Of a stretch of DNA of 64,000 nucleotides, positions 49,324-63,943 are shown one piece after another. Every line of letters starts with the position of its first letter. Position 1 is the first letter of the stretch. The stretch covers positions 160,001 to 224,000 of the forward strand of contig CAVSPA010000006.1 in assembly GCA_963729715.1 (NCBI GenBank), written 5' to 3'. Position numbers and translations under genes: made by a program. This stretch comes from an uncultured delta proteobacterium (GTDB taxonomy: Bacteria > Desulfobacterota > Syntrophia > Syntrophales > UBA2185). Under the pieces are notes generated by a model. The model had not been told where the DNA came from and made no database searches. It saw nothing but the letters and a program-made list of their open reading frames with translations.

Positions 49324-50763
49324 TCAGCTCCTTATCTTGATTACTACTTTTATGGATGGTTCCCTTCTGCCTTCGAATTGAACCTCTGAGGGCACAATCA
49401 GCCTTGGTGCAAATGTAGTTGTTGAAGTTAGTTGGCTTAAGTCAATCGGTGTCGTCCTTATCCGAATTTTGGTGTGAAGCAGCTTGCCCGGTGCTAGAAC
49501 CCTAACTGCCGGAGGTGTCACCGTGATCTTCTGGATGGCAACTCCCGGGGGCGGCGCATTTTTAGTTACAACCTCGACAGGAACGGAAATATGGACAAAC
49601 CGTGACGCAGTGACGGTGATGCGACTGGGCTTGATCCCCACTATGGTTAGGTTTGAAGGTGCATCTATCATGTCTTTCGTGAGTACTATATCCTGTCTGC
49701 CTTCTTGGATCTGCGATAGATTCAAGGATATCTTGAGTGTGTCCATATTCAGAATCTGAAAGGTCTGCGGGGGACCAACAAGCATTACCTTAGCTTCAGA
49801 AATTTTAGGCTCTTTGATTACCCATTCAGGGGGTATGTTCAGATATTCAACAGGTATGGTAAAGTCCTTCTGGATTGATTCCCTCTGGTATCCGAAAATC
49901 ATCCAGAGGATACAGGCAAGGATAATGGCGATGACCTTCTCCTTCGTATTTTCTTTTAACCACCGTGCAAGAGGCCCCGGCTTCCTTAAGGGTGCTTTGC
50001 TTGTATAATAAGTTACCAGGACACCCTTGAGTGCTGATGCGCTGACTTCCCTGATCCGTTCACCTTCGGCAATGCAAATGGTTCCCCTTTCTTCCGAAAC
50101 AACTATGGAAATGGCGTCCGACCGTTCGGAGAGGCCGAGGGCGGCAGTATGGCGAAGACCAAGATTCTTGTAACGACTGGCATTCGGCGAGAGGGGCAGA
50201 TGGCATCCAAAACGAGTTACTACGTTTCCGTCAATTACAACGGCGCCGTCATGGCCTACGGAATGAGGATCAAAAATGCTTTCCAGCAGTGGCTCGCTGA
50301 GAGTGCCGTTCAGTTCCACGCCGCCACTGAGATGTCTGTCAAGAGGATCGCTTCCCTGGATAACAATCAGGGCACCGATATGCTTTCGTGCAAGATCGGC
50401 CACAGTCTGTGCTATGATTTCAGATGTCTGTCCATGTGATGTTGTCCTTTGAATCCTTTTCCTGATTATTCCCAGGATGGCAAGACGTTCAAAGAATCTC
50501 CGGAGGTCTTCCTGAAATATAACAACAAGAACGAAAAGAAGGATGGCAAAAAATCCCTGCAGGACGACTGTGGTGAGGTAAAGTTGGAAAAATTTGGCAA
50601 TGACGTAGATAAAACCCAGGAGACTGATGCCGATGAATACAAAACGTGAGGCTCTGTCTTTAATCCATATCAGGAGTACGGAAATGGCTATCGATATGAT
50701 GGCAATGTCAAGGACGTCCTGAATCCGCAGGCTCTGCAACATTGGCCAGATGCTATCTATCAT
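49324..50763 (-). CDS. dacA: Diadenylate cyclase (CdaA/DacA) fused to YbbR/CdaR-like domains
   Basis: Three N-terminal TMs, VIFQEDLRR, HDGAVVI, GLRHTAA, VSEERG; further TM followed by YbbR-like beta repeats. Confidence 0.9.
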   Translation of the reverse strand: MIDSIWPMLQSLRIQDVLDIAIISIAISVLLIWIKDRASRFVFIGISLLGFIYVIAKFFQLYLTTVVLQGFFAILLFVLVVIFQEDLRRFFERLAILGIIRKRIQRTTSHGQTSEIIAQTVADLARKHIGALIVIQGSDPLDRHLSGGVELNGTLSEPLLESIFDPHSVGHDGAVVIDGNVVTRFGCHLPLSPNASRYKNLGLRHTAALGLSERSDAISIVVSEERGTICIAEGERIREVSASALKGVLVTYYTSKAPLRKPGPLARWLKENTKEKVIAIILACILWMIFGYQRESIQKDFTIPVEYLNIPPEWVIKEPKISEAKVMLVGPPQTFQILNMDTLKISLNLSQIQEGRQDIVLTKDMIDAPSNLTIVGIKPSRITVTASRFVHISVPVEVVTKNAPPPGVAIQKITVTPPAVRVLAPGKLLHTKIRIRTTPIDLSQLTSTTTFAPRLIVPSEVQFEGRREPSIKVVIKIRS

Positions 50764-50941
50764 AATCTCTTTTCTTTCATGTCAGAAGGACCATCTGTCC
50801 GCATCTTGACTTTGTTAAATAAAACACGGTGATATAATTTTTGCAATAGACAATATTTATGAATCTCATTTTTTTCTTGACAACGGTTTCTGCTTATGGT
50901 TTTGTTAATTTAAAAGATTATTAGTAAGCGTGATAGACGGA

Positions 50942-51025
50942 ATGAACACAAACGGGTTGATCAAAGGCTTTTATTACTGGAACTACTATTTCCTATTGGT
51001 CTGCCTGTTGCTCGGGAGGAATTAG
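50942..51025 (+). CDS. Aromatic amino-acid attenuator leader peptide MNTNGLIKGFYYWNYYFLLVCLLLGRN
   Basis: Codons 10-17 are TTT TAT TAC TGG AAC TAC TAT TTC (7 of 8 aromatic); upstream of terminators and the aro operon. Confidence 0.85.
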   Translation: MNTNGLIKGFYYWNYYFLLVCLLLGRN

Positions 51026-51047
51026 CGCCAGTTAAATGAAACATAAG

Positions 51048-51092
51048 AGCCATGGGTAGACTGAAGGAAGCTGCCCATGGCTTTTTATTTTT
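51048..51092 (+). terminator. Attenuator terminator 1
   Basis: AGCCATGGGTAG...CTGCCCATGGCT followed by TTTTATTTTT. Confidence 0.85.
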
Positions 51093-51095
51093 GTG

Positions 51096-51131
51096 AGGCC
51101 ATGGGAAGAGTTGTTTCCATGGCCTTTTTCT
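51096..51131 (+). terminator. Tandem terminator-like hairpin 2
   Basis: AGGCCATGGGAA...TTTCCATGGCCT followed by TTTTCT. Confidence 0.75.
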
Positions 51132-51294
51132 ATTCATTGAGGTGCAGCATGTTCGAAAAGTCCCGCCCAAAGCGCGGGATTTACGGGATGTGCATTCAGC
51201 CAAGGCGACGCCTTGAGAAAAGGGAGCAGTCCAATCGCCTGCTGGCGGGTGGACAGGCATGGACTCTTAGATTTAATTTTGAAGGGGGAGAATC

Positions 51295-52323
51295 GTGATT
51301 ATCGTGATGAAGAAAAGTGCAACGGAAGGACAGATTGAGAACGTTATCGCTTGGATAGAATCCGTGGGATACAACGCCCATCCTTCACGGGGCGTTGAAC
51401 GGGCTATAATAGGTGCAGTCGGCGACGAGCGGGGCAAGGCTTTCCTGATGTCTGCAGAATCAATCTCCGGGGTGGAAAAGGTCGTATCCATTCTTAAGCC
51501 GTATAAACTGGCGAGCCGGGAGTCAAGGGAAGAAGATACCATCATACGGGTGGGAGAAGTGGAAATCGGCGGTCCACGCTTCGTAGTCATGGCCGGCCCT
51601 TGCTCCGTGGAAAGCGAAGAACAGGTGATGGAAAGCGCCTACATTGTAAAGAAGGGAGATGCGCAATTCCTCAGGGGCGGAGCATTCAAGCCAAGGACAT
51701 CCCCTTACAGCTTCCAGGGTATGGAAGAAGAGGGTCTCAAGTTGTTGGCAAAGGCTAGGGAGAAAACAGGCTTGCCTGTTGTTACGGAAGTCATGAATAC
51801 GGCAGACGTCGATCTCGTCGAGGCGTATGCTGATATAATGCAGGTCGGAGCGCGCAACATCCAGAACTTCCCCCTCCTCAAACAAGTTGGCCATTCACAG
51901 AAGCCGGTTCTCTTGAAGCGGGGAATGATGACCACAATCGAGGAACTGCTGATGTCGGCAGAATACATCCTCTCTTCCGGAAATAATCAGGTTATTCTCT
52001 GCGAGAGGGGCATTCGCACCTTTGAGACTGCCACCCGCAACACGCTGGATATTAGCGCGGTTCCGGTTTTGAAAGAATTAACCCATCTTCCGGTCATCGT
52101 TGACCCCAGTCACGCCTCGGGCAACTGGAAATATGTGATTCCTCTGAGCAGGGCAGCCATGGCCGTGGGGGCGGATGGACTTCTTGTCGAGGTTCATCCT
52201 GAGCCCGAGAAGGCTGTTTCTGACGGCGGTCAATCTCTCAAACCGGAAAAATTCTACCAGCTAATGGAAGAGATAAAGAGCCTGGAGGGCGTTATCAAGA
52301 AAAGGAAGCAGGTGTTTCGATGA
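51295..52323 (+). CDS. aroF: DAHP synthase type I-beta with N-terminal regulatory domain
   Basis: [34 protein letters not shown]. Confidence 0.96.
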
Positions 52324-53414
52324 AGAAGATAAAGGTCAATCTGGATAAAAAAGTTACCGCCTCCTATGAGATATGCATCGGATATGACGTTCTGGACCGG
52401 ATAGGGCTGCTCATCGCGAAACATATGCCGGCCCTTCGTTACATCATCATTACTGATGTCAACGTCTCAGCCATCTATGGAAAGATGCTTCTCGACAGAT
52501 TGAAGGGCATGGCGCTTCCGGCGGATATGATCGAATTTCCTGCAGGGGAGGATGCAAAAAGCATCGGCGCGACCGTAGCCATAGTCGAGAGACTGATAAA
52601 ACTTGGAGCTGACAGAAAGTCCGCTCTTCTTGCCCTGGGAGGTGGAGTCGTCGGTGACGTGACAGGTTTTATCGCGTCCACGTTCATGAGGTCTGTTCCC
52701 TATATCCAGATTCCCACAACCCTTGTGGCCCAGGTGGACAGCAGCATCGGCGGGAAGACCGCCATCAATCTTCCGGAAGGGAAAAACCTGCTCGGGACCT
52801 TTTACCAGCCGAGAGGAGTGTTCATTGACGTGAAGTTTCTGGATACACTTCCCGAAGAAGATATGAGCAGCGGCCTTGCGGAGGCGATCAAATACGGCGT
52901 AATTGATAGTGTGGAGTTCTTTAATTTTTTGGAGCGAGATATTGAGGCAATCAAAGAGAGGGATCGGGATGTTCTCGAGGAAATCATTGAGAATGCGTGC
53001 AGGATAAAAAAGGGTATCGTAGAGATAGATGAAAAGGAGATGGGGCTTCGCCGTGTGCTCAACTTTGGTCACACTATAGGACACGCCATCGAAGCGGAGT
53101 CCCATTATACCGTGTCGCATGGGGCCGCCGTCTCCCTGGGCATGGTCGCTGCCGCAAGGATTTCAGAGGGCATGCATGATTTTCCCCGCAGGGATCGGAA
53201 GAGGATTGAACACCTGCTGGAAAGTGCGGGTCTTCCCTGCCGTATTCCGCAAACTCTAACAACGGATGGTATTATGGCGAGGTTAAGAGCGGACAAGAAA
53301 AAAGAAGGTGATAGGATTCATTTCGTCCTGCTTAAAAAGATGGGAATGCCTTTCATAAACGGGGGCGTCCCTGAATCGATTCTGTGTGAAACGCTGGAGG
53401 AAATGAAAAAATGA
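52320..53414 (+). CDS. aroB: 3-dehydroquinate synthase
   Basis: [33 protein letters not shown]. Confidence 0.97.
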
Positions 53415-54493
53415 GATTATCATTACTTGATCGCCTCCGGCGTGATCTCAAGGAAACGGACGGCAGGATCGTAAAGCTGCTCAATGAGAGAGCTTTACTA
53501 TCCATGAAAATAGGAAGCGATAAGGCAAGAAAGGGACTGGATGTGTTCGATGCCTCGCAGGAAGCGAAACTTCTTGCATACCTGGCAAAGGTCAACGAAG
53601 GGGCGCTGCCGGAGAAATATCTGAAGGCCATATTTAGGGAGATCATTTCCGCTTCGCGGGCCTTGCAGAAGCCAGTTACAGTGGCCTTTCTGGGACCGCA
53701 CGCGACATTCAGCCATCTCGCTGCAGAGGATTATTTCGGTACGAGCAGCGGCTTCATCCCTCAGGCAAGTATCTTTCATGTCTTTGACGAAGTTGAGAAA
53801 GGGAAGGTGCAATGGGGGGTTGTCCCCGTGGAGAATTCCCTCGAAGGTTCCGTCAAATTGACCCTTGATCGATTGATATTGACCCCCCTTACGATTCGGG
53901 CGGAGATTTTTCTGAGGATCAGCCACTGCCTGCTTGCGCCGATGAAGAGACTGGACAGGATCAAGCGGGTCTATTCGATTCCCCAGGTGCTGGCGCAGTG
54001 CCAGGGATGGCTCCGCACCAATCTTCCCCGGTGTGCGCTTGCTGAAACAGAAAGCACCGCTGCTGCAGTCCGGATTGTCCGGGACTGTAAAGATGGCGCC
54101 GCCATAGGAAGTCGCCTCGCTGCCGCCACGTACGGGCTCAATATACTTTCGGAAGGCATCGAAGACAATCCATCGAATACGACGCGATTTCTGGTCATAG
54201 GAGAAGGTGAAAGCAACATGACGGGAACAGATAAGACGTCAATCCTCTTCAGTACCCGCCATGTGCCGGGCGCCCTGTATCATGCGCTGGAGCCATTTGT
54301 TCTGCAGCGGATTAACCTGATGAAGCTCGAATCATATCCCCTCAAGGAGAGGTTATGGGAGTATCTCTTCTTTGTTGATTTTTCCGGTCATACAGATGAT
54401 CCCGAAATCAGAAGATGCATTAAAGCCGTAAGGAGGAAGACCAATTTCCTGAAGGTCCTCGGATCTTATCCCAGGGGCGAGGAAACACGATGA
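53411..54493 (+). CDS. pheA: Chorismate mutase/prephenate dehydratase (P-protein)
   Basis: AroQ-type N-terminus, PVENSLEG, NTTRF, ACT domain, LGSYP. Confidence 0.93.
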   Translation: MRLSLLDRLRRDLKETDGRIVKLLNERALLSMKIGSDKARKGLDVFDASQEAKLLAYLAKVNEGALPEKYLKAIFREIISASRALQKPVTVAFLGPHATFSHLAAEDYFGTSSGFIPQASIFHVFDEVEKGKVQWGVVPVENSLEGSVKLTLDRLILTPLTIRAEIFLRISHCLLAPMKRLDRIKRVYSIPQVLAQCQGWLRTNLPRCALAETESTAAAVRIVRDCKDGAAIGSRLAAATYGLNILSEGIEDNPSNTTRFLVIGEGESNMTGTDKTSILFSTRHVPGALYHALEPFVLQRINLMKLESYPLKERLWEYLFFVDFSGHTDDPEIRRCIKAVRRKTNFLKVLGSYPRGEETR

Positions 54494-56025
54494 TCTGTAT
54501 TCCCATCACAGGAAACACACAGGAAGGAGCCATGCTCCAGATAGAGATGGGCTTGTCATGCGCCCATGTGTTAGAATTAAGAATGGATTTGATTAGTGGA
54601 GACTTAAAGACGTTGATGGAAAAGTGCAGATCGTCTCGAAAGCCTGTCAAGATACTGGTCACAAACAGGAGAAAGGAATCTTTATCGTCTGTCAAAATTT
54701 CAGGCGAGAGACGGAGGATCGCTCTGCTGAAGGAGGCTGTCCACCTTGGCGCGGATTATGTGGACGTTGAACTCTATACACCCGATGCTTTGCGGAAAGA
54801 TGTGCTGGCGACGGTGAGCGCCCATGGAAACAGGACCAGGATGATTATTTCGCATCATGATTTCAGCAAAACGCCGTCATTAGAAATATTGAAAAACATT
54901 TTCCATGACTGCGTGGAATGCGGCGCCGGTGTTGCTAAAATAGTCACTCTTGCAAAAAGTTCGGAGGATAACCTTACGGTTCTCAGCCTGCTCCCTTACG
55001 CCCGTGATAGAAAGAATGATCTCATCGCGTTCTGTATGGGGGAAGAGGGAAGGGAAAGCAGGATAATGGCGCCCCTCCTTGGTTCTTATCTCAGTTTCGC
55101 CTCGCTGAAGGACGGACTGGCCTCAGCATCTGGTCAACTTACCGTCGGTGAGATGGAAGATGTCCTGAATATCGCCGGTCATGATATTCACAGGAAGGGC
55201 AAGTTATCCGTGCCCCCGGATGCGAGGCTTTTTTGTCTTTTGGGAAATCCTGTGAATCAGAGTCTCTCGCCCTTGATGCATGATGCGGCGCTCAAAAAGA
55301 TGAAAATCGTGGCTAAGTATTTGCCATTCTGCATCCAGGATATTGGCTCTGCCGCAATGGGCATCAGGGGTAGTGGCATCTGCGGTGCAAGTGTAACCGT
55401 ACCTTTTAAGGTTGCCGTCTTGGAACATCTCGATGAAGCAGATGCTGACGCGCGGAAGATCGGAGCAGTAAATACCATCGTCAATGACAACGGCAGGCTG
55501 AAGGGCTTCAATACCGACTGGATTGGTCTTGTTCGATCCATCAGCGAAGTTACAGATATCAAAGGGAAGGTGTTCGCCATTTTGGGAGCCGGCGGAGCCG
55601 CGCGGGCCGCTGTTTTCGGCATCGAGAGAGAAGGGGGCATTCCAGTTATCGTCAATAGAAATGTCGCCAGGGGGGAAAACCTGGCAAAAGAGTGCGGATG
55701 CTCTTTTTACCCTCTTTCGGAGTCGAGCAGGGTCAGGGCGGATTGTCTGATCAATACAACACCCGTGGGCATGACACCGAATGTGGATGAATCTCCCGTC
55801 AGCAGCGCGATTCTTGTTAATTACCAGTGGGTCATGGACGTTATCTATAATCCTCTGAAGACGAGACTGATGCGCGATGCTGAAAATGCAGGGTGTATAA
55901 CCGTACCGGGCCTCGGCATGTTCGTTCATCAAGGAGCGGAACAGATCAGGCTCTGGACGGGACAGGAAGCCCCGAGAGAGTTTATGAAGCAGGTCGTGAG
56001 GGAGCGCCTTTTATATGGAAATTAA
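54490..56025 (+). CDS. aroDE: Fused type I dehydroquinase + shikimate dehydrogenase
   Basis: ELRMD, DYVDVE, SHHDF, MG..G..SR; SLSP.MH, VTVPFK, GAVNT, NTD, GAGGAA. Confidence 0.93.
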   Translation: MICIPITGNTQEGAMLQIEMGLSCAHVLELRMDLISGDLKTLMEKCRSSRKPVKILVTNRRKESLSSVKISGERRRIALLKEAVHLGADYVDVELYTPDALRKDVLATVSAHGNRTRMIISHHDFSKTPSLEILKNIFHDCVECGAGVAKIVTLAKSSEDNLTVLSLLPYARDRKNDLIAFCMGEEGRESRIMAPLLGSYLSFASLKDGLASASGQLTVGEMEDVLNIAGHDIHRKGKLSVPPDARLFCLLGNPVNQSLSPLMHDAALKKMKIVAKYLPFCIQDIGSAAMGIRGSGICGASVTVPFKVAVLEHLDEADADARKIGAVNTIVNDNGRLKGFNTDWIGLVRSISEVTDIKGKVFAILGAGGAARAAVFGIEREGGIPVIVNRNVARGENLAKECGCSFYPLSESSRVRADCLINTTPVGMTPNVDESPVSSAILVNYQWVMDVIYNPLKTRLMRDAENAGCITVPGLGMFVHQGAEQIRLWTGQEAPREFMKQVVRERLLYGN

Positions 56026-57274
56026 GCTGGTTCATCGTTTGAATGCAACTGTCGAGGTTCCCGGTTCCAAGAGTTACACGCAGAGGGCCCTTGTTGTTGC
56101 CTGCCTCGCGGAAGGCAGATCCATGCTAAGCAATGCGCTCATTTCGGAGGATACGAGATATTTTATAGAGGCGTTGCGTTTCCTTGGCGCTGAGATCATT
56201 ATCTCAGGGAACGATGTCACGGTCGCCGGAACAGGCGGTCATATGCATAATCCAGGACGGGTGATCATGCTGGGGAACAATGGGACGGCGCTGCGGTTTC
56301 TGACGACACTGGCCTCTCTGGGGAAGGGTGAGTATATTCTCGACGGCAGCAGCCGCCTTCGTGAAAGGCCTTTGGGGCCGCTTCTCCGCGCCCTGAAAAT
56401 CCTGGGAGTTCAATTTCAAAGCAGGGACGGCTATCCTCCGGTCAAGATCGTTACAGAAGGCTTAAACGGCGGCAACGTTGCCTTTGCAGATGTGGAGAGC
56501 AGCCAATATGTCTCGTCGCTCCTCATCGGCGCTCCTTACGCAGCGGGCGATATAGAAATTGCGCTCACAGGGAAGACAGTTTCCCAGCCCTACATAGACA
56601 TGACTGTGGACGTCATGGGGCGCTTTGGCGCGGAAGTAATCACGAGAGAAAAAAAATTATTCAATGTAAGAAGCAGGCGTCATTACAGGGGACAGAGGTA
56701 CATCATTGAAGGAGATGCATCCAGCGCCTCCTATTTTTTCCTGGCTGCCGCATTATGCCGCGGACGGGTCAAGGTCGTAAACATCAACCCGGCAAGCCTT
56801 CAGGGTGACATCAATATCCTGGGCATAATGGAAAGTCTTGGCTGTTCCGTAGTCCGTGGAGATCGTTGGGTCGAGGTTGTCGGCGGACCGTTACATGAAG
56901 GGGACGTCTTTTTCGACATGGGAAACATGCCTGACATGGTGCCGACCCTAGCGGTTCTTGCTGCATTCAGAGAGGGACAAACGACTATCACAAATGTTTC
57001 ACATCTGCGCGTTAAGGAAAGCGACCGTATAGTGGCGCTGGTAAGTGAACTAAAGAAGATCGGTGTGGCTGCAAGAGAAACGGCGGACGGCCTCATTGTC
57101 GTCGGAGGGAGACCGCATGGCGCCCATATTGAGACATACAACGATCATCGGATTGCCATGAGTTTCGCCATCGCAGGGCTTGCAGTGCCCGGGATCAGAA
57201 TAGAGGACAGGCATTGTGTGGGGAAATCATTTCCCGGATTCTGGACTGAGCTCTCAAGATTGTATGAGGATTAA
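56015..57274 (+). CDS. aroA: EPSP synthase
   Basis: PGSKS..QR, GTALRF, SSQYVS, RVKESDR, DHRIAM, KSFP. Confidence 0.97.
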   Translation: MEIKLVHRLNATVEVPGSKSYTQRALVVACLAEGRSMLSNALISEDTRYFIEALRFLGAEIIISGNDVTVAGTGGHMHNPGRVIMLGNNGTALRFLTTLASLGKGEYILDGSSRLRERPLGPLLRALKILGVQFQSRDGYPPVKIVTEGLNGGNVAFADVESSQYVSSLLIGAPYAAGDIEIALTGKTVSQPYIDMTVDVMGRFGAEVITREKKLFNVRSRRHYRGQRYIIEGDASSASYFFLAAALCRGRVKVVNINPASLQGDINILGIMESLGCSVVRGDRWVEVVGGPLHEGDVFFDMGNMPDMVPTLAVLAAFREGQTTITNVSHLRVKESDRIVALVSELKKIGVAARETADGLIVVGGRPHGAHIETYNDHRIAMSFAIAGLAVPGIRIEDRHCVGKSFPGFWTELSRLYED

Positions 57275-57835
57275 GTGCACATAGTACTGATTGGATACCG
57301 TGGAACGGGTAAATCTGCCGTGGGAAAAAGGCTTGCCGATAAGCTGCGCATGCCGTTCTATGATACGGATGAGCTTGTCGAGCAAGAGGCAGGGATGTCG
57401 ATCCGGGACATGGTAGCGGAAAAAGGCTGGGCATATTTCCGGAAGAGAGAGCGTGAGATTGTCAGGAAGCTGGCGCTTCTGCAAAGAGGCGTTGTGGCGA
57501 CAGGCGGCGGGGCGGTCACGGATGAGGGCAATTGCGGCATTATTAAAGAGCACGGTTTATTGATCTGGCTTAGGGCTGATGTGATGACGATGGTTGAAAG
57601 AATGAGGGACGATGCGGCGAGTGAAGAAAGGCGGCCTGCCTTTTTGCATGATGATGTCTTTCGGGAGACAGAAGATGTCCTAAAGCAACGGATACCGGTA
57701 TACAGGGGGCTGGCGGATTTTTCGCTGGATACAACGGGTAAGAACATAGATGAAATAGTCAACGCTGTCTGTGAATTTCTGAACGGAGCAGGCGGATTTA
57801 TCAGCAAGGAATCAACATGTCAGGAAATTCCATAG
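57275..57835 (+). CDS. aroK: Shikimate kinase
   Basis: GYRGTGKS, DTD, GW.YFR..E, ATGGG. Confidence 0.93.
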   Translation: MHIVLIGYRGTGKSAVGKRLADKLRMPFYDTDELVEQEAGMSIRDMVAEKGWAYFRKREREIVRKLALLQRGVVATGGGAVTDEGNCGIIKEHGLLIWLRADVMTMVERMRDDAASEERRPAFLHDDVFRETEDVLKQRIPVYRGLADFSLDTTGKNIDEIVNAVCEFLNGAGGFISKESTCQEIP

Positions 57836-58890
57836 GCGTTTTCTTTAGAGTGACAACCTGGGGTGAATCACATGGTCCCGCAACTGGTGCGGTTGTGGAC
57901 GGATGTCCTCCCGGTATTGGCCTTGTAGAAGAAGACATTCAGAAATGGCTGAACAGGAGAAGACCGGGCAGGATCGCCTCAAGTTCGCCCCGTAAGGAAA
58001 ACGATATAGTTAAAATACTATCGGGGACTTTTCAGGGAAAGACCACGGGTACGCCCATTTCCCTGATTATGGAGAACATGGACGTTCACGGCAGCGCCTA
58101 TGAAGACATCAGGGACGTCTTCAGACCCGGGCATGGTGATTTTACCTATTTCAAAAAGTACGGGATCCGCGATTACCGGGGCGGTGGACGTGCTTCGGGC
58201 CGGGAAACGGCAGCTCGCGTGGCTGCAGGGGCAATTGCGCAAAAAATCATTTCGCGCCTAGGTGTGGTAGTCATTGCCTATACGAAGGCGCTGGGAGGTA
58301 TTGTCATAGATCGAACGAAATACACAGCCGGAACAATCTTTCACGAAGATATAGCGGCAAATCACCTGCTGTGCCCAGATCTTGACGCTGCAAGGGTTAT
58401 GGAGGAGAAACTGGAGGAAGCGAGACTCTCCGGCGATTCCCTCGGCGGTATTGTTGAAATCATCGTGAGAGGATGCCCCCCGGGTCTGGGAGAACCGGTG
58501 TTTGATAAGATGGATGCCGACCTTGCGAAGGCACTCATGAGCATCGGGACGGTGAAGGGAGTGGAGATAGGGGCCGGCTTCAAAGTTGCCGAAATGACCG
58601 GGTCTCAGGCAAATGATCCCATGACGCCTGATAGTTTCCTTTCCAATCACGCCGGCGGCATACTGGCCGGCATTACGACAGGCCAAGATATCGTTTTGCG
58701 GGTGGCGGCGAAGCCTATCCCCTCGATTGCTAAAGTCCAGCAGACCATCGACATCCGGGGAAATCGAGTGGAATTGTCGCTCAAGGGGAGGCACGACGTA
58801 TCTGCAATACCCCGCATAATTCCTGTGTGCGAGGCGATGGTGACAATTGTGTTGGCGGATCATTTATTGAGGCAAAAGGCGATTTCATGA
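57817..58890 (+). CDS. aroC: Chorismate synthase
   Basis: GESHG, RPGHGD, GGGRASGRETA, N.AGGILAG, GRHD. Confidence 0.97.
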   Translation: MSGNSIGVFFRVTTWGESHGPATGAVVDGCPPGIGLVEEDIQKWLNRRRPGRIASSSPRKENDIVKILSGTFQGKTTGTPISLIMENMDVHGSAYEDIRDVFRPGHGDFTYFKKYGIRDYRGGGRASGRETAARVAAGAIAQKIISRLGVVVIAYTKALGGIVIDRTKYTAGTIFHEDIAANHLLCPDLDAARVMEEKLEEARLSGDSLGGIVEIIVRGCPPGLGEPVFDKMDADLAKALMSIGTVKGVEIGAGFKVAEMTGSQANDPMTPDSFLSNHAGGILAGITTGQDIVLRVAAKPIPSIAKVQQTIDIRGNRVELSLKGRHDVSAIPRIIPVCEAMVTIVLADHLLRQKAIS

Positions 58891-59666
58891 ATACCAAGAT
58901 AGGCATCATTGGCGGCACCCGCGGCATGGGCTGTTGGTTCGTCCGTTTCCTCGAGAAGGAGGGACACGCCGTGCGCGTGTGCGGAAGGAATATGAGTCAG
59001 TCGGATATTGCCAAAATGGCCGATACATGTGACGTGGTAGTTGTGAGTGTCCCCATGGGGGCAACCGGCAATGTTATTGCGAAGGTTGGTCCGCATATGC
59101 GCGCGGCCTCTCTTCTCATGGATCTCACATCTCTGAAGCGGGATTCCGTCAAGTCTATGTTGGAAACATCCGTTTCCGCGGTGATTGGATGCCATCCCCT
59201 CTTCGGTCCCAGGGTTGATTCCATCACGGGGCAGCATGTTGTCCTCTGTCCTGCGCGAGCGGGGAAGTGGCTTTCCTGGCTTACGGACATCTTTGAGAGG
59301 AACGGTGCGCTTATGGTGGAAACGACGCCGGAAAAACATGACCAAATGATGGCCATCGTTCAGGGACTCAATCATTTCAATACAATCATGATGGGTCTGA
59401 TTTTGAGCGAGGCGGGGGTGAACCTGTCAGAGTTAATGAAGTTCTCCACACCGGTCTTTCGGGAGAAGATGGAAATCTTGGAAAGAGTATTTTGTCAAAA
59501 TTCCGGGCTCTATGCCGACATCTTAACGATGAATCCTGAGATTCATCGGCATATCGACGCATACGAACAAAACGTAGCTCAACTGAAAAATCTAATCCTT
59601 CACGGAAATAGCGCGGGTCTTGCAGATGTGATTGAGAAGCACGCCCCTTTCTTTAAAGTCGTCTGA
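58887..59666 (+). CDS. tyrA: Prephenate/arogenate dehydrogenase
   Basis: IIGGTRGMG, DLTSLK, HPLFGP, HDQMMA.VQGL.H; ATGA coupling to aroC. Confidence 0.92.
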   Translation: MNTKIGIIGGTRGMGCWFVRFLEKEGHAVRVCGRNMSQSDIAKMADTCDVVVVSVPMGATGNVIAKVGPHMRAASLLMDLTSLKRDSVKSMLETSVSAVIGCHPLFGPRVDSITGQHVVLCPARAGKWLSWLTDIFERNGALMVETTPEKHDQMMAIVQGLNHFNTIMMGLILSEAGVNLSELMKFSTPVFREKMEILERVFCQNSGLYADILTMNPEIHRHIDAYEQNVAQLKNLILHGNSAGLADVIEKHAPFFKVV

Positions 59667-62699: not shown

Positions 62700-63074
62700 G
62701 TGATCGAAATTGATTTTGACAAAGGGAGTGGACTTGTGCCTGTTATAGTTCAGGACGTTGACACAGGAGAGGTTCTCATGCTTGCCTACATGAATCGGGA
62801 TGCCTGGCTGAAAACGCGTGAGACGGGCAAGGCGACATACTGGAGCAGGTCGAGAAATGAGCTGTGGGTCAAAGGTGAGACATCCGGGCATATTCAGATT
62901 GTCGAGGAAATTTTAGTTGACTGTGATTCTGACACTGTTCTTCTGAAAGTGAGGCAAGCAGGCGGTGCCGCGTGCCACACGGGCTACAGATCATGTTTCT
63001 TCAGAAGAGTCGTTAATGGAAAAACGGAGGTTATCGGGGAACGAATATTCAAACCGGAGGATGTCTACAAATGA
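62700..63074 (+). CDS. hisI: Phosphoribosyl-AMP cyclohydrolase
   Basis: WSRSR, KGETSG, DCDSD, ACHTG..SCF. Confidence 0.97.
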
Positions 63075-63943
63075 AGAAATTGAAACTGGGAATACCGAAA
63101 GGAAGCCTGGAGGTCAAGACCGTGGACCTCTTTAAAATGGCTGGCTGGCGCATCACATATGATGAGAGGAGTTACTTCCCGGAAATAGACGACGAGGACA
63201 TCTCCTGCACCCTTGTGAGGGCACAGGAGATGTCAAGATATGTTGAGGATGGAACTCTGGATCTGGGGTTGACCGGCAAGGACTGGATCATCGAAAATGA
63301 ATCGAATGTCGTCGAGGTGCAGGATCTGATATATTCGAAGGCATCGGCAAGGCAGGCGAAGTGGGTTCTGATAGTCAGAGAAGATTCCCCCGTGCAGGCC
63401 ATCGAGGACATGGAAGGGAAGAAGATCTCGACCGAACTGGTGCGATTCACGGAAAGGTATTTCAGGAAGAAGAACATCAATGTTCATGTCGAGTTTTCCT
63501 GGGGTGCAACGGAGGCGAAATGTGTTGAAGGCCTCGTGGATGCCATCGTTGAGGTAACGGAAACGGGAACGACGATTAAGGCTAACAAGTTGAGGATTGT
63601 GCATGAGCTGATGAAAACCAATACAAAGCTCATCGCCAATCCTGCCGCATGGGAGGACCCCTGGAAGCGCAAGAAGATAGAGCAGATAAGGACGCTGCTG
63701 AACGGCTCATTGCTGGCCATGGGGAAGGTGGGCTTGAAGCTGAATGTATCCAAGGAGAATCTTGGGAGGGTTGTCCTCCTGTTGCCTGCGCTGAAAGCGC
63801 CCACCATCTCCGGACTGTACTCGAATGACTGGTATGCTGTGGAAACAATAGTAGACGGGAATGTCGTTCGGGAATTGATTCCCCTGCTTAAAGAAGCCGG
63901 GGCCGAAGGCATTATTGAATATCCCTTGAATAAGGTTGTCTGA
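63071..63943 (+). CDS. hisG: ATP phosphoribosyltransferase, long form
   Basis: [28 protein letters not shown]-terminal regulatory domain. Confidence 0.96.

Follow-up and report, generated by a model that had tools for sequence, protein, structure and literature searches.

A predicted aromatic-codon attenuator with two linked terminators upstream of a shikimate operon in Syntrophales

The 5' leader of the shikimate operon in the window (the whole 64,000-nt stretch of Syntrophales DNA analysed here) is predicted to form a ribosome-sensed attenuator, in which stalling at Tyr, Phe and Trp codons would open two serial terminators through a chain of alternative helices. We give this reading a probability of about 0.75. 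Its basic mechanism, transcription attenuation mediated by a ribosome on a leader peptide, is very probably the one that operates here. Directly readable from the DNA are the operon, the leader, the two hairpins, each with a U-tract, and six segments able to pair.

The operon, aroF-aroB-pheA-aroDE-aroA-aroK-aroC-tyrA (51295-59666, on the + strand like all window features below unless stated), was assigned from profile matches, and its co-transcription is predicted from overlapping or abutting genes. The aroF product matches DAHP synthase, pheA a chorismate mutase-prephenate dehydratase and aroDE an AroD-AroE fusion; the remaining products match AroB, AroA, shikimate kinase, AroC and prephenate dehydrogenase, the assignments of the last two-domain gene and of TyrA and AroK being best matches, some of them under curated cut-offs. 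Gene order and identities agree with the eight-gene shikimate operon named in the first-pass annotation. Neither TrpR nor TRAP was found when looked for in the source genome (G000), and a TyrR-type domain gave a match below cut-off only. Further downstream, hisI-hisG-like genes lie at 62700-63943 (+); a short-ORF scan of G000 found no His-run leader with a terminator.

The leader peptide and its control codons

A 27-codon ORF (50942-51025) encodes MNTNGLIKGFYYWNYYFLLVCLLLGRN, followed by a stop, and contains the control block F-Y-Y-W-N-Y-Y-F at 50969-50992, as the first-pass annotation had it, with every motif quoted there found in its place. An SD-like GTGAT (50930-50934), 7 nt 5' of the ATG, pairs with the 16S tail of G000 at −6.1 kcal/mol, versus −2.4 for an alternative GTG start at 50930; from this site and the open frame, the leader is predicted to be translated. 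Such a composition is rare in the genome. Among 31,228 short ATG ORFs of G000, at least six aromatic codons in nine occur in 30 and seven in nine in only 2, of which the ORF at 50942-51025 is the only one with a terminator-like hairpin 3' of it. Of the 30, just the aro leader and a Phe-rich paralogue have such a hairpin behind them. The peptide had no match in NCBIfam, and BLASTN of the leader against G000 found no second copy.

Relatives carry the same arrangement. All 41 of the 41 genomes have an aroF orthologue, and at 29 of 30 loci, chosen by the aroF protein alone, an aromatic leader lies 5' of the gene; the thirtieth locus ends at a contig edge but keeps the rest of the element. The conservation of aromatic codons upstream of aroF, which had been proposed as a check, is thus observed. 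A covariance model built from the 29 leaders gave matches in 146 of 151 genomes of the order, some of them paralogues. We took 120 of the best of these order-level matches, of which 111 precede aroF; the model that chose this set was itself derived from the element. Left out were L011 (contig end), L184 (a second, degenerate copy), nine non-aroF loci and L258 (partial ilvB). Families and genera stand for independent events here, in place of a tree.

Over 139 leaders, the control block contains on average 3.8 Tyr, 2.7 Phe and 1.0 Trp codons, and all three residues are present in 128. The Tyr and Phe codons vary synonymously from leader to leader, and 99 of the 117 Ser codons inside it are of the AGY rather than the UCN type, which argues for conservation of the residue instead of a U-rich tract. 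The distance from the last aromatic codon to segment 2, the 5' arm of the antiterminator, is 9 or 12 nt in 112 of 123 leaders. Codon composition, synonymous variation, fixed spacing and the loss of the Trp codon described below all fit the earlier proposal of a Tyr-weighted attenuator of the common aromatic pathway.

We considered whether the attenuator senses Tyr and Phe only, or just one of them, the single Trp codon being too weak to matter. One Trp codon stands against about 6.5 Tyr or Phe codons, modelled sensitivity rises with the share of codons that are regulatory in the available text of PMC1183508, the Tyr codon of Corynebacterium glutamicum aroR gives no Tyr response according to that of PMC11802643, and trpE has a Trp-run attenuator of its own. 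If the Trp codon were idle, its presence should not follow that of the trp genes. Yet, it was found in 126 of 129 genomes with trpE and/or trpA (six classed by trpE) and was absent from 9 of 11 trp-less genomes with an aroF leader, a comparison in which trp genes not found may reflect assembly gaps and kin are not independent. The trp-less genomes were drawn from 18 of 151 that had neither trpE (E 1e-90) nor trpA (E 1e-20), three of them classed by elimination as not among the matches listed; for seven of the 18, this query did not recover aroF at E 1e-60, and they lie outside the comparison. Four families show losses of the Trp codon, and contrasts inside a genus are seen in g11 and g54 (G025 against nine congeners, and G126 against G109). 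The exceptions with trp genes but no Trp codon are two genomes of family f11, which keep a native trpE and also have no terminator 2, and G046, whose TrpE is 37% identical to that of G000 (67-73% for four others) and whose family is otherwise without trp genes. In G046, the divergent TrpE lies in a 774-aa open frame (L224, G046:C63), and a re-acquired TrpEG fusion is possible. A real Trp input to the aro attenuator is therefore likely, and a sensor of Tyr and Phe alone is doubtful.

Upstream of the ORF, a sigma-70 promoter is predicted at 50877-50905 (TTGACA, 14 nt, TG, 1 nt and a weak −10 hexamer), which would place the transcription start near 50912. The TTGACA-N14-TG pattern recurs in 115 of 134 aroF leaders, a count made without a null control. 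A divergently oriented gene for a CdaA-like diadenylate cyclase, whose C-terminal extension is long, occupies 49324-50763 on the − strand, and an extended −10-like sequence, TGATATAAT, is found at 50831-50839 (+) within the 50810-50845 region beside it.

Two terminators and a predicted relay helix

Both alternative structures proposed in the first pass were recovered by folding. The antiterminator pairs segment 2 (50996-51013, encoding L-V-C-L-L with near-fixed codons) with segment 3 (51047-51063) at −24.1 kcal/mol (z −2.9 against 200 dinucleotide shuffles). Terminator 1 (51045-51092) pairs segment 3 with segment 4 (51071-51085) in a hairpin at 51045-51085 with a U-tract at 51082-51092 (z −7.0, dinucleotide shuffles). 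The second terminator expected 3' of the first was also present: segments 5 and 6 form a hairpin at 51095-51126 with a U-tract at 51125-51131 (51095-51131 overall; z −5.3, dinucleotide shuffles), it is shared across relatives, and the two hairpins have a common stem base. Terminator 1 and the promoter both escaped a consensus scan. When the leader was folded under an assumed ribosome cover of 13 nt, the 2:3 antiterminator was kept with A-site codons up to 16-17 and was gone from codon 20, so that it would survive an early stall and be lost with the ribosome further 3'.

The first-pass reading of tandem terminators stands, though it gave no account of how polymerase would pass terminator 2. A relay helix would supply one. 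Positions 51074-51084, in segment 4, can pair with 51095-51105, in segment 5 (51074-51105 overall, −19.8 kcal/mol), and with 2:3 held this predicted relay antiterminator 4:5 is the best fold up to the synthesis of segment 6. Two units of hairpin plus U-tract are present in 135 of 140 aroF leaders; of the other five, three have a second hairpin with a weak U-tract and two, from family f11, have no second hairpin. Over 29 sequences, the paired fraction was 97.7% for the terminators (0 of 500 shuffles as good) and 91.7% for 2:3 plus 4:5 (6 of 500), versus 74.4% for the mirror helix 3:6 (415 of 500).

The second hairpin might instead have arisen by duplication as a partial terminator that acts constitutively, or serve in pausing or RNA stability, behind a classical one-terminator attenuator, with 4:5 as a by-product. 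The stem base is indeed common not only to both hairpins but also to the single-terminator leu-type leaders of G000, 5:6 exceeds 4:5 in stability once the transcript is complete, ilvB leaders show no 4:5/3:6 asymmetry, and terminator 2 is missing in f11 and at 3 of 25 loci elsewhere in the phylum. If 4:5 resulted from simple duplication, the mirror helix 3:6 should be its equal. Yet, the mean pairing energy over 123 leaders (17 of 140 were unparsed, and kin are not independent) was −19.5 for 4:5 versus −12.7 for 3:6, with 4:5 the stronger in 120. When arms were swapped between genomes, with one leader per family, the own-genome combination gained 1.8 kcal for 4:5 and 1.95 for 3:4, but only 0.2 for 3:6, and three other non-adjacent pairs had no such gain. 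As 3:6 is weaker than 4:5, and 4:5 is matched within lineages, the element is not what simple duplication predicts. Furthermore, all seven changes at the variable stem pair of terminator 2 keep 4:5 while six break 3:6, and random pairs of G000 terminators have a median of −6.8 versus −18.6 at this element. Among 889 terminator-like hairpins of G000, only seven tandem pairs occur, three of them being two-terminator leaders, in a scan that missed the pair of the Phe leader. Taken with these comparisons, an accessory or duplicated second hairpin is unlikely, and 4:5 is probably a functional relay by which one ribosome stall opens both terminators.

The energies also indicate what such a relay would demand. 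At equilibrium, both terminators together reach −46.7 versus −43.9 for 2:3 plus 4:5, a difference of about 3 kcal, and with 2:3 held and segment 6 present, 5:6 beats 4:5 by 5 kcal. Because the terminators are favoured at equilibrium, the relay switch needs kinetic trapping.

We infer that the leader is translated, that ribosomes stall within it, that its segments fold in a set order and that termination occurs at both sites, in the following manner. With charged tRNAs in ample supply, the ribosome would reach the stop at 51025 and cover segment 2, terminator 1 would form, and polymerases that leak past it would meet a free segment 5 and halt at terminator 2. When tRNA-Tyr or tRNA-Phe is uncharged (or tRNA-Trp, with a weaker effect from its one codon), the ribosome would stall at codons 10-17, segment 2 would take segment 3, segment 4 would take segment 5 ahead of segment 6, and aroF-tyrA would be transcribed. 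If the leader were not translated, its 5' end would sequester segment 2, which would tip the balance towards termination. Terminator 2 would serve as a second lock that lowers basal read-through where no repressor is evident.

The helix that would act in the untranslated leader may differ from the one first proposed. Segment 1 (50951-50967), a candidate anti-antiterminator, is predicted to pair with 50992-51009 in the minimum free energy fold of the nascent leader with no ribosome loaded. In G000, its duplex with the segment-2 region reaches −19.1 versus −15.0 for the earlier protector, ACTGG/CCAGT, which can form but has a z of −0.8, is matched by 40 of 200 shuffles and is weaker than the helix at the 5' end. 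The best upstream partner of segment 2 in relatives lies about 50-100 nt 5', around the start codon, and the alternative 5' helix has a mean z of −2.07 (mononucleotide shuffles), with values below −1 in 105 of 133 leaders. The control-codon block has an own-genome pairing advantage of 2 kcal, which is confounded by base composition. Either protector helix, at the 5' end or in the control-codon block, is possible.

Between terminator 2 and aroF lies a variable structured spacer (51132-51294), single-copy in G000, which ends in the aroF ribosome-binding site. For most members of the genus, the distance it spans is 157-173 nt; the majority of other families have about 25-30 nt there and lack its structured part. 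A 203-nt RNA contig of a relative spans 50916-51086, ending about at the U-tract of terminator 1; it is a single, low-depth contig from one study with its 5' end upstream of the predicted start site, and was not counted as evidence. The RNA data covered a small share of the element in only one run.

The two remaining explanations are both highly improbable. An arrest peptide, modelled on those of the TnaC type, would bind, inside the ribosome tunnel, either a metabolite of the pathway or an aromatic amino acid in its free form, with V-C-P as its arrest signal; V-C-[P/L] does end most leaders. These residues, however, are fixed by codon (GTC in 108 of 120, TGC in 113 of 120), pair with segment 3 as RNA and fall in another reading frame in 3 of 123 leaders, so that the V-C-P ending is, judged from the codons, an RNA constraint and the motif is not conserved independently of codons and frame as in TnaC or ErmCL. 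The order of the aromatic residues varies freely, and an arrest on an abundant amino acid there would cover segment 2 and make codon runs unnecessary. As for a U-rich block that senses tRNA modification or general translation speed, or hairpins that serve as a palindromic protein or DNA site, all three types of aromatic codon start with U, the class of codons that MiaA-type tRNA modification concerns, and the stem base is palindromic; the AGY choice for serine speaks against it, as do paralogous leaders that switch to Trp, Phe or Ile/Leu/Val codons in line with their downstream genes.

Leaders of the same design, and precedents

Detected only by the ORF scan and the covariance model, the paralogous leaders of G000 with the two-terminator layout precede trpE, ilvB and an ABC cluster with a Phe leader. 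The trpE leader (L039, G000:C4:303585-303751, +) begins with TTG and contains three Trp codons, and its two terminators are linked. This layout recurs at 27 of 30 trpE loci, the other three ending at contig edges; 4:5 beats the mirror in 23 of 27, and 5:6 is on average stronger than 4:5. The ilvB-ilvN leader (L225, G000:C5:673055-672847, −) carries Ile/Leu/Val codons, and 27 of 29 ilvB leaders have two terminators, but the mirror test failed there (4:5 was stronger in only 3 of 27). Just downstream of this locus is a second ilvB, headed by an Ile-rich leader (C5:670537-) that has a single terminator. The Phe-run leader (L226, G000:C4:289048-288877, −) has the same segment 2 and two terminators, and precedes genes for an ABC binding protein, an ATPase, an AMP-binding protein (acyl-CoA ligase) and a permease; it is also found in six other genomes (L132, L182, L185-L188). 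Its codons suggest a cluster that takes up and activates Phe or one of its precursors, for example phenylacetate. Two Leu-rich leaders have a single terminator: L228 (G000:C7:102443-102600, +), 5' of a leuA-like gene, and L227 (G000:C5:309567-309390, −), 5' of a 2-oxoacid:ferredoxin oxidoreductase cluster, which hints at Leu synthesis through reductive carboxylation.

Single cases elsewhere extend this list. In G045, where trp genes were not found, a Trp-run leader with an aro-type element (L071, G045:C24) precedes an exported protein of unknown family that may take part in Trp-related uptake. A second aromatic leader in G017 (L183, G017:C26) precedes a gene that we take, from its N-terminus, to be AroH-type and chorismate-mutase-like.

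Beyond the order, the 29-leader model matched 81 of 151 genomes of the phylum, where weak matches may be generic terminators. All 25 phylum loci inspected have aromatic leaders, and terminator 2 is absent at three of them. The genes that follow are an aroF-like DAHP synthase (12), ADH synthase (9), another class of DAHP synthase (1), trpE (1) and a binding-protein-like gene (1), the last locus ending with its contig; six of the downstream proteins were scanned, and the others were assigned by N-terminal likeness. With related leaders in front of two classes of DAHP synthase and of ADH synthase, a non-homologous first enzyme of the pathway, the sensor appears from these loci to follow the pathway rather than the gene. 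The exact two-terminator pattern occurs in 87 stretches across 185,579 species, and the 80 matches listed are mostly from Syntrophales, Smithella, Syntrophus, Desulfarculaceae or Deltaproteobacteria. Whether the double lock is a reusable module of Syntrophales and related deltaproteobacteria, with sensor codons swapped among aro, trp, ilv and Phe-linked uptake genes and the aro version a three-input gate trimmed on branch loss, is about evenly balanced.

The switch itself is of a textbook type. It shares with enterobacterial trpL, pheL, pheM, hisL, thrL and ilvL a leader ORF and alternative 2:3 and 3:4 helices of similar stability, and leaders that read several amino acids are known for thr and ilv. 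No Rfam leader family (Trp_leader, Phe_leader, His_leader and others) matched the window at gathering score, T-box and riboswitch aptamer models had no match, and relaxing the limit to E 10 brought up only eukaryotic and sRNA matches attributable to chance. Delta-proteobacteria are reportedly among the groups surveyed by Vitreschak (2004) and Lopatovskaya (2010), which makes an earlier prediction for Syntrophus possible. The C. glutamicum aroR-aroF attenuator is said to come from the study of Neshat et al. (2014).

Going by published descriptions, C. glutamicum aroR is the closest known case. According to the available text of PMC11802643, it is a tested attenuator with a Phe-Tyr-Phe leader before a DAHP synthase operon, and it answers Phe but not Tyr. 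Mixed aromatic codons before a DAHP synthase operon and attenuation by ribosome stalling are common to both; likened by description, aroR has three codons and no Trp, unlike the seven codons of three kinds, the whole shikimate/Phe/Tyr operon and the two linked terminators described here. The novelty is thus smaller than the first pass implied, as mixed-aromatic sensing before DAHP synthase has this tested precedent, and as aroR answers Phe and not Tyr, a three-way OR gate is no more than a candidate.

Other precedents share single features, as far as the available text of each source describes them. In the Desulfovibrio vulgaris aroA'-aroB'-pheA-aroF-tyrA-trp supraoperon, a putative attenuator was predicted in 2005 (PMC1173090); it is likewise a case of deltaproteobacterial aromatic attenuation, and related leaders precede ADH synthase (aroA') at the nine phylum loci given above. 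That text, to which the element is likened by description, mentions neither a leader peptide nor a double terminator. The ermK gene of Bacillus licheniformis has a leader-peptide transcriptional attenuator with two adjacent intrinsic terminators (PMC4335068), but stalling there is induced by antibiotic and not set by amino-acid supply. Two tandem terminators also occur in the rimP 5' leader (PMC2965389), which is described with no leader peptide and with stems that are inverse motifs. The Acholeplasma uORFC-13-1 motif, a predicted uORF attenuator 5' of aroF (PMC8632094), differs in having a Phe run only, one terminator and an unrelated lineage, and there is an aroF attenuator entry for Shewanella (PMC2659441). 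An extra hairpin of the his leader, which terminator 2 would resemble in role, was modelled to lower basal read-through absent a repressor (PMC1183508); it is not described there as a terminator, whereas both hairpins here have U-tracts. The available text of PMC4615214 and PMC4833913 held nothing on an aro double-terminator element, and a literature search, with key subscription papers and supplements outside its scope, found no description of one. What is new is likely the predicted double-lock form with two linked terminators.

If the prediction is true, it would show how aromatic synthesis is controlled in slow-growing syntrophic anaerobes without evident TrpR or TRAP. It would also represent a design found in nature where two terminators depend on a single RNA decision, so that leak is reduced and induction kept. 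Furthermore, leader codons could be used to predict the roles of unannotated downstream genes, such as the ABC/acyl-CoA ligase cluster behind the Phe leader.
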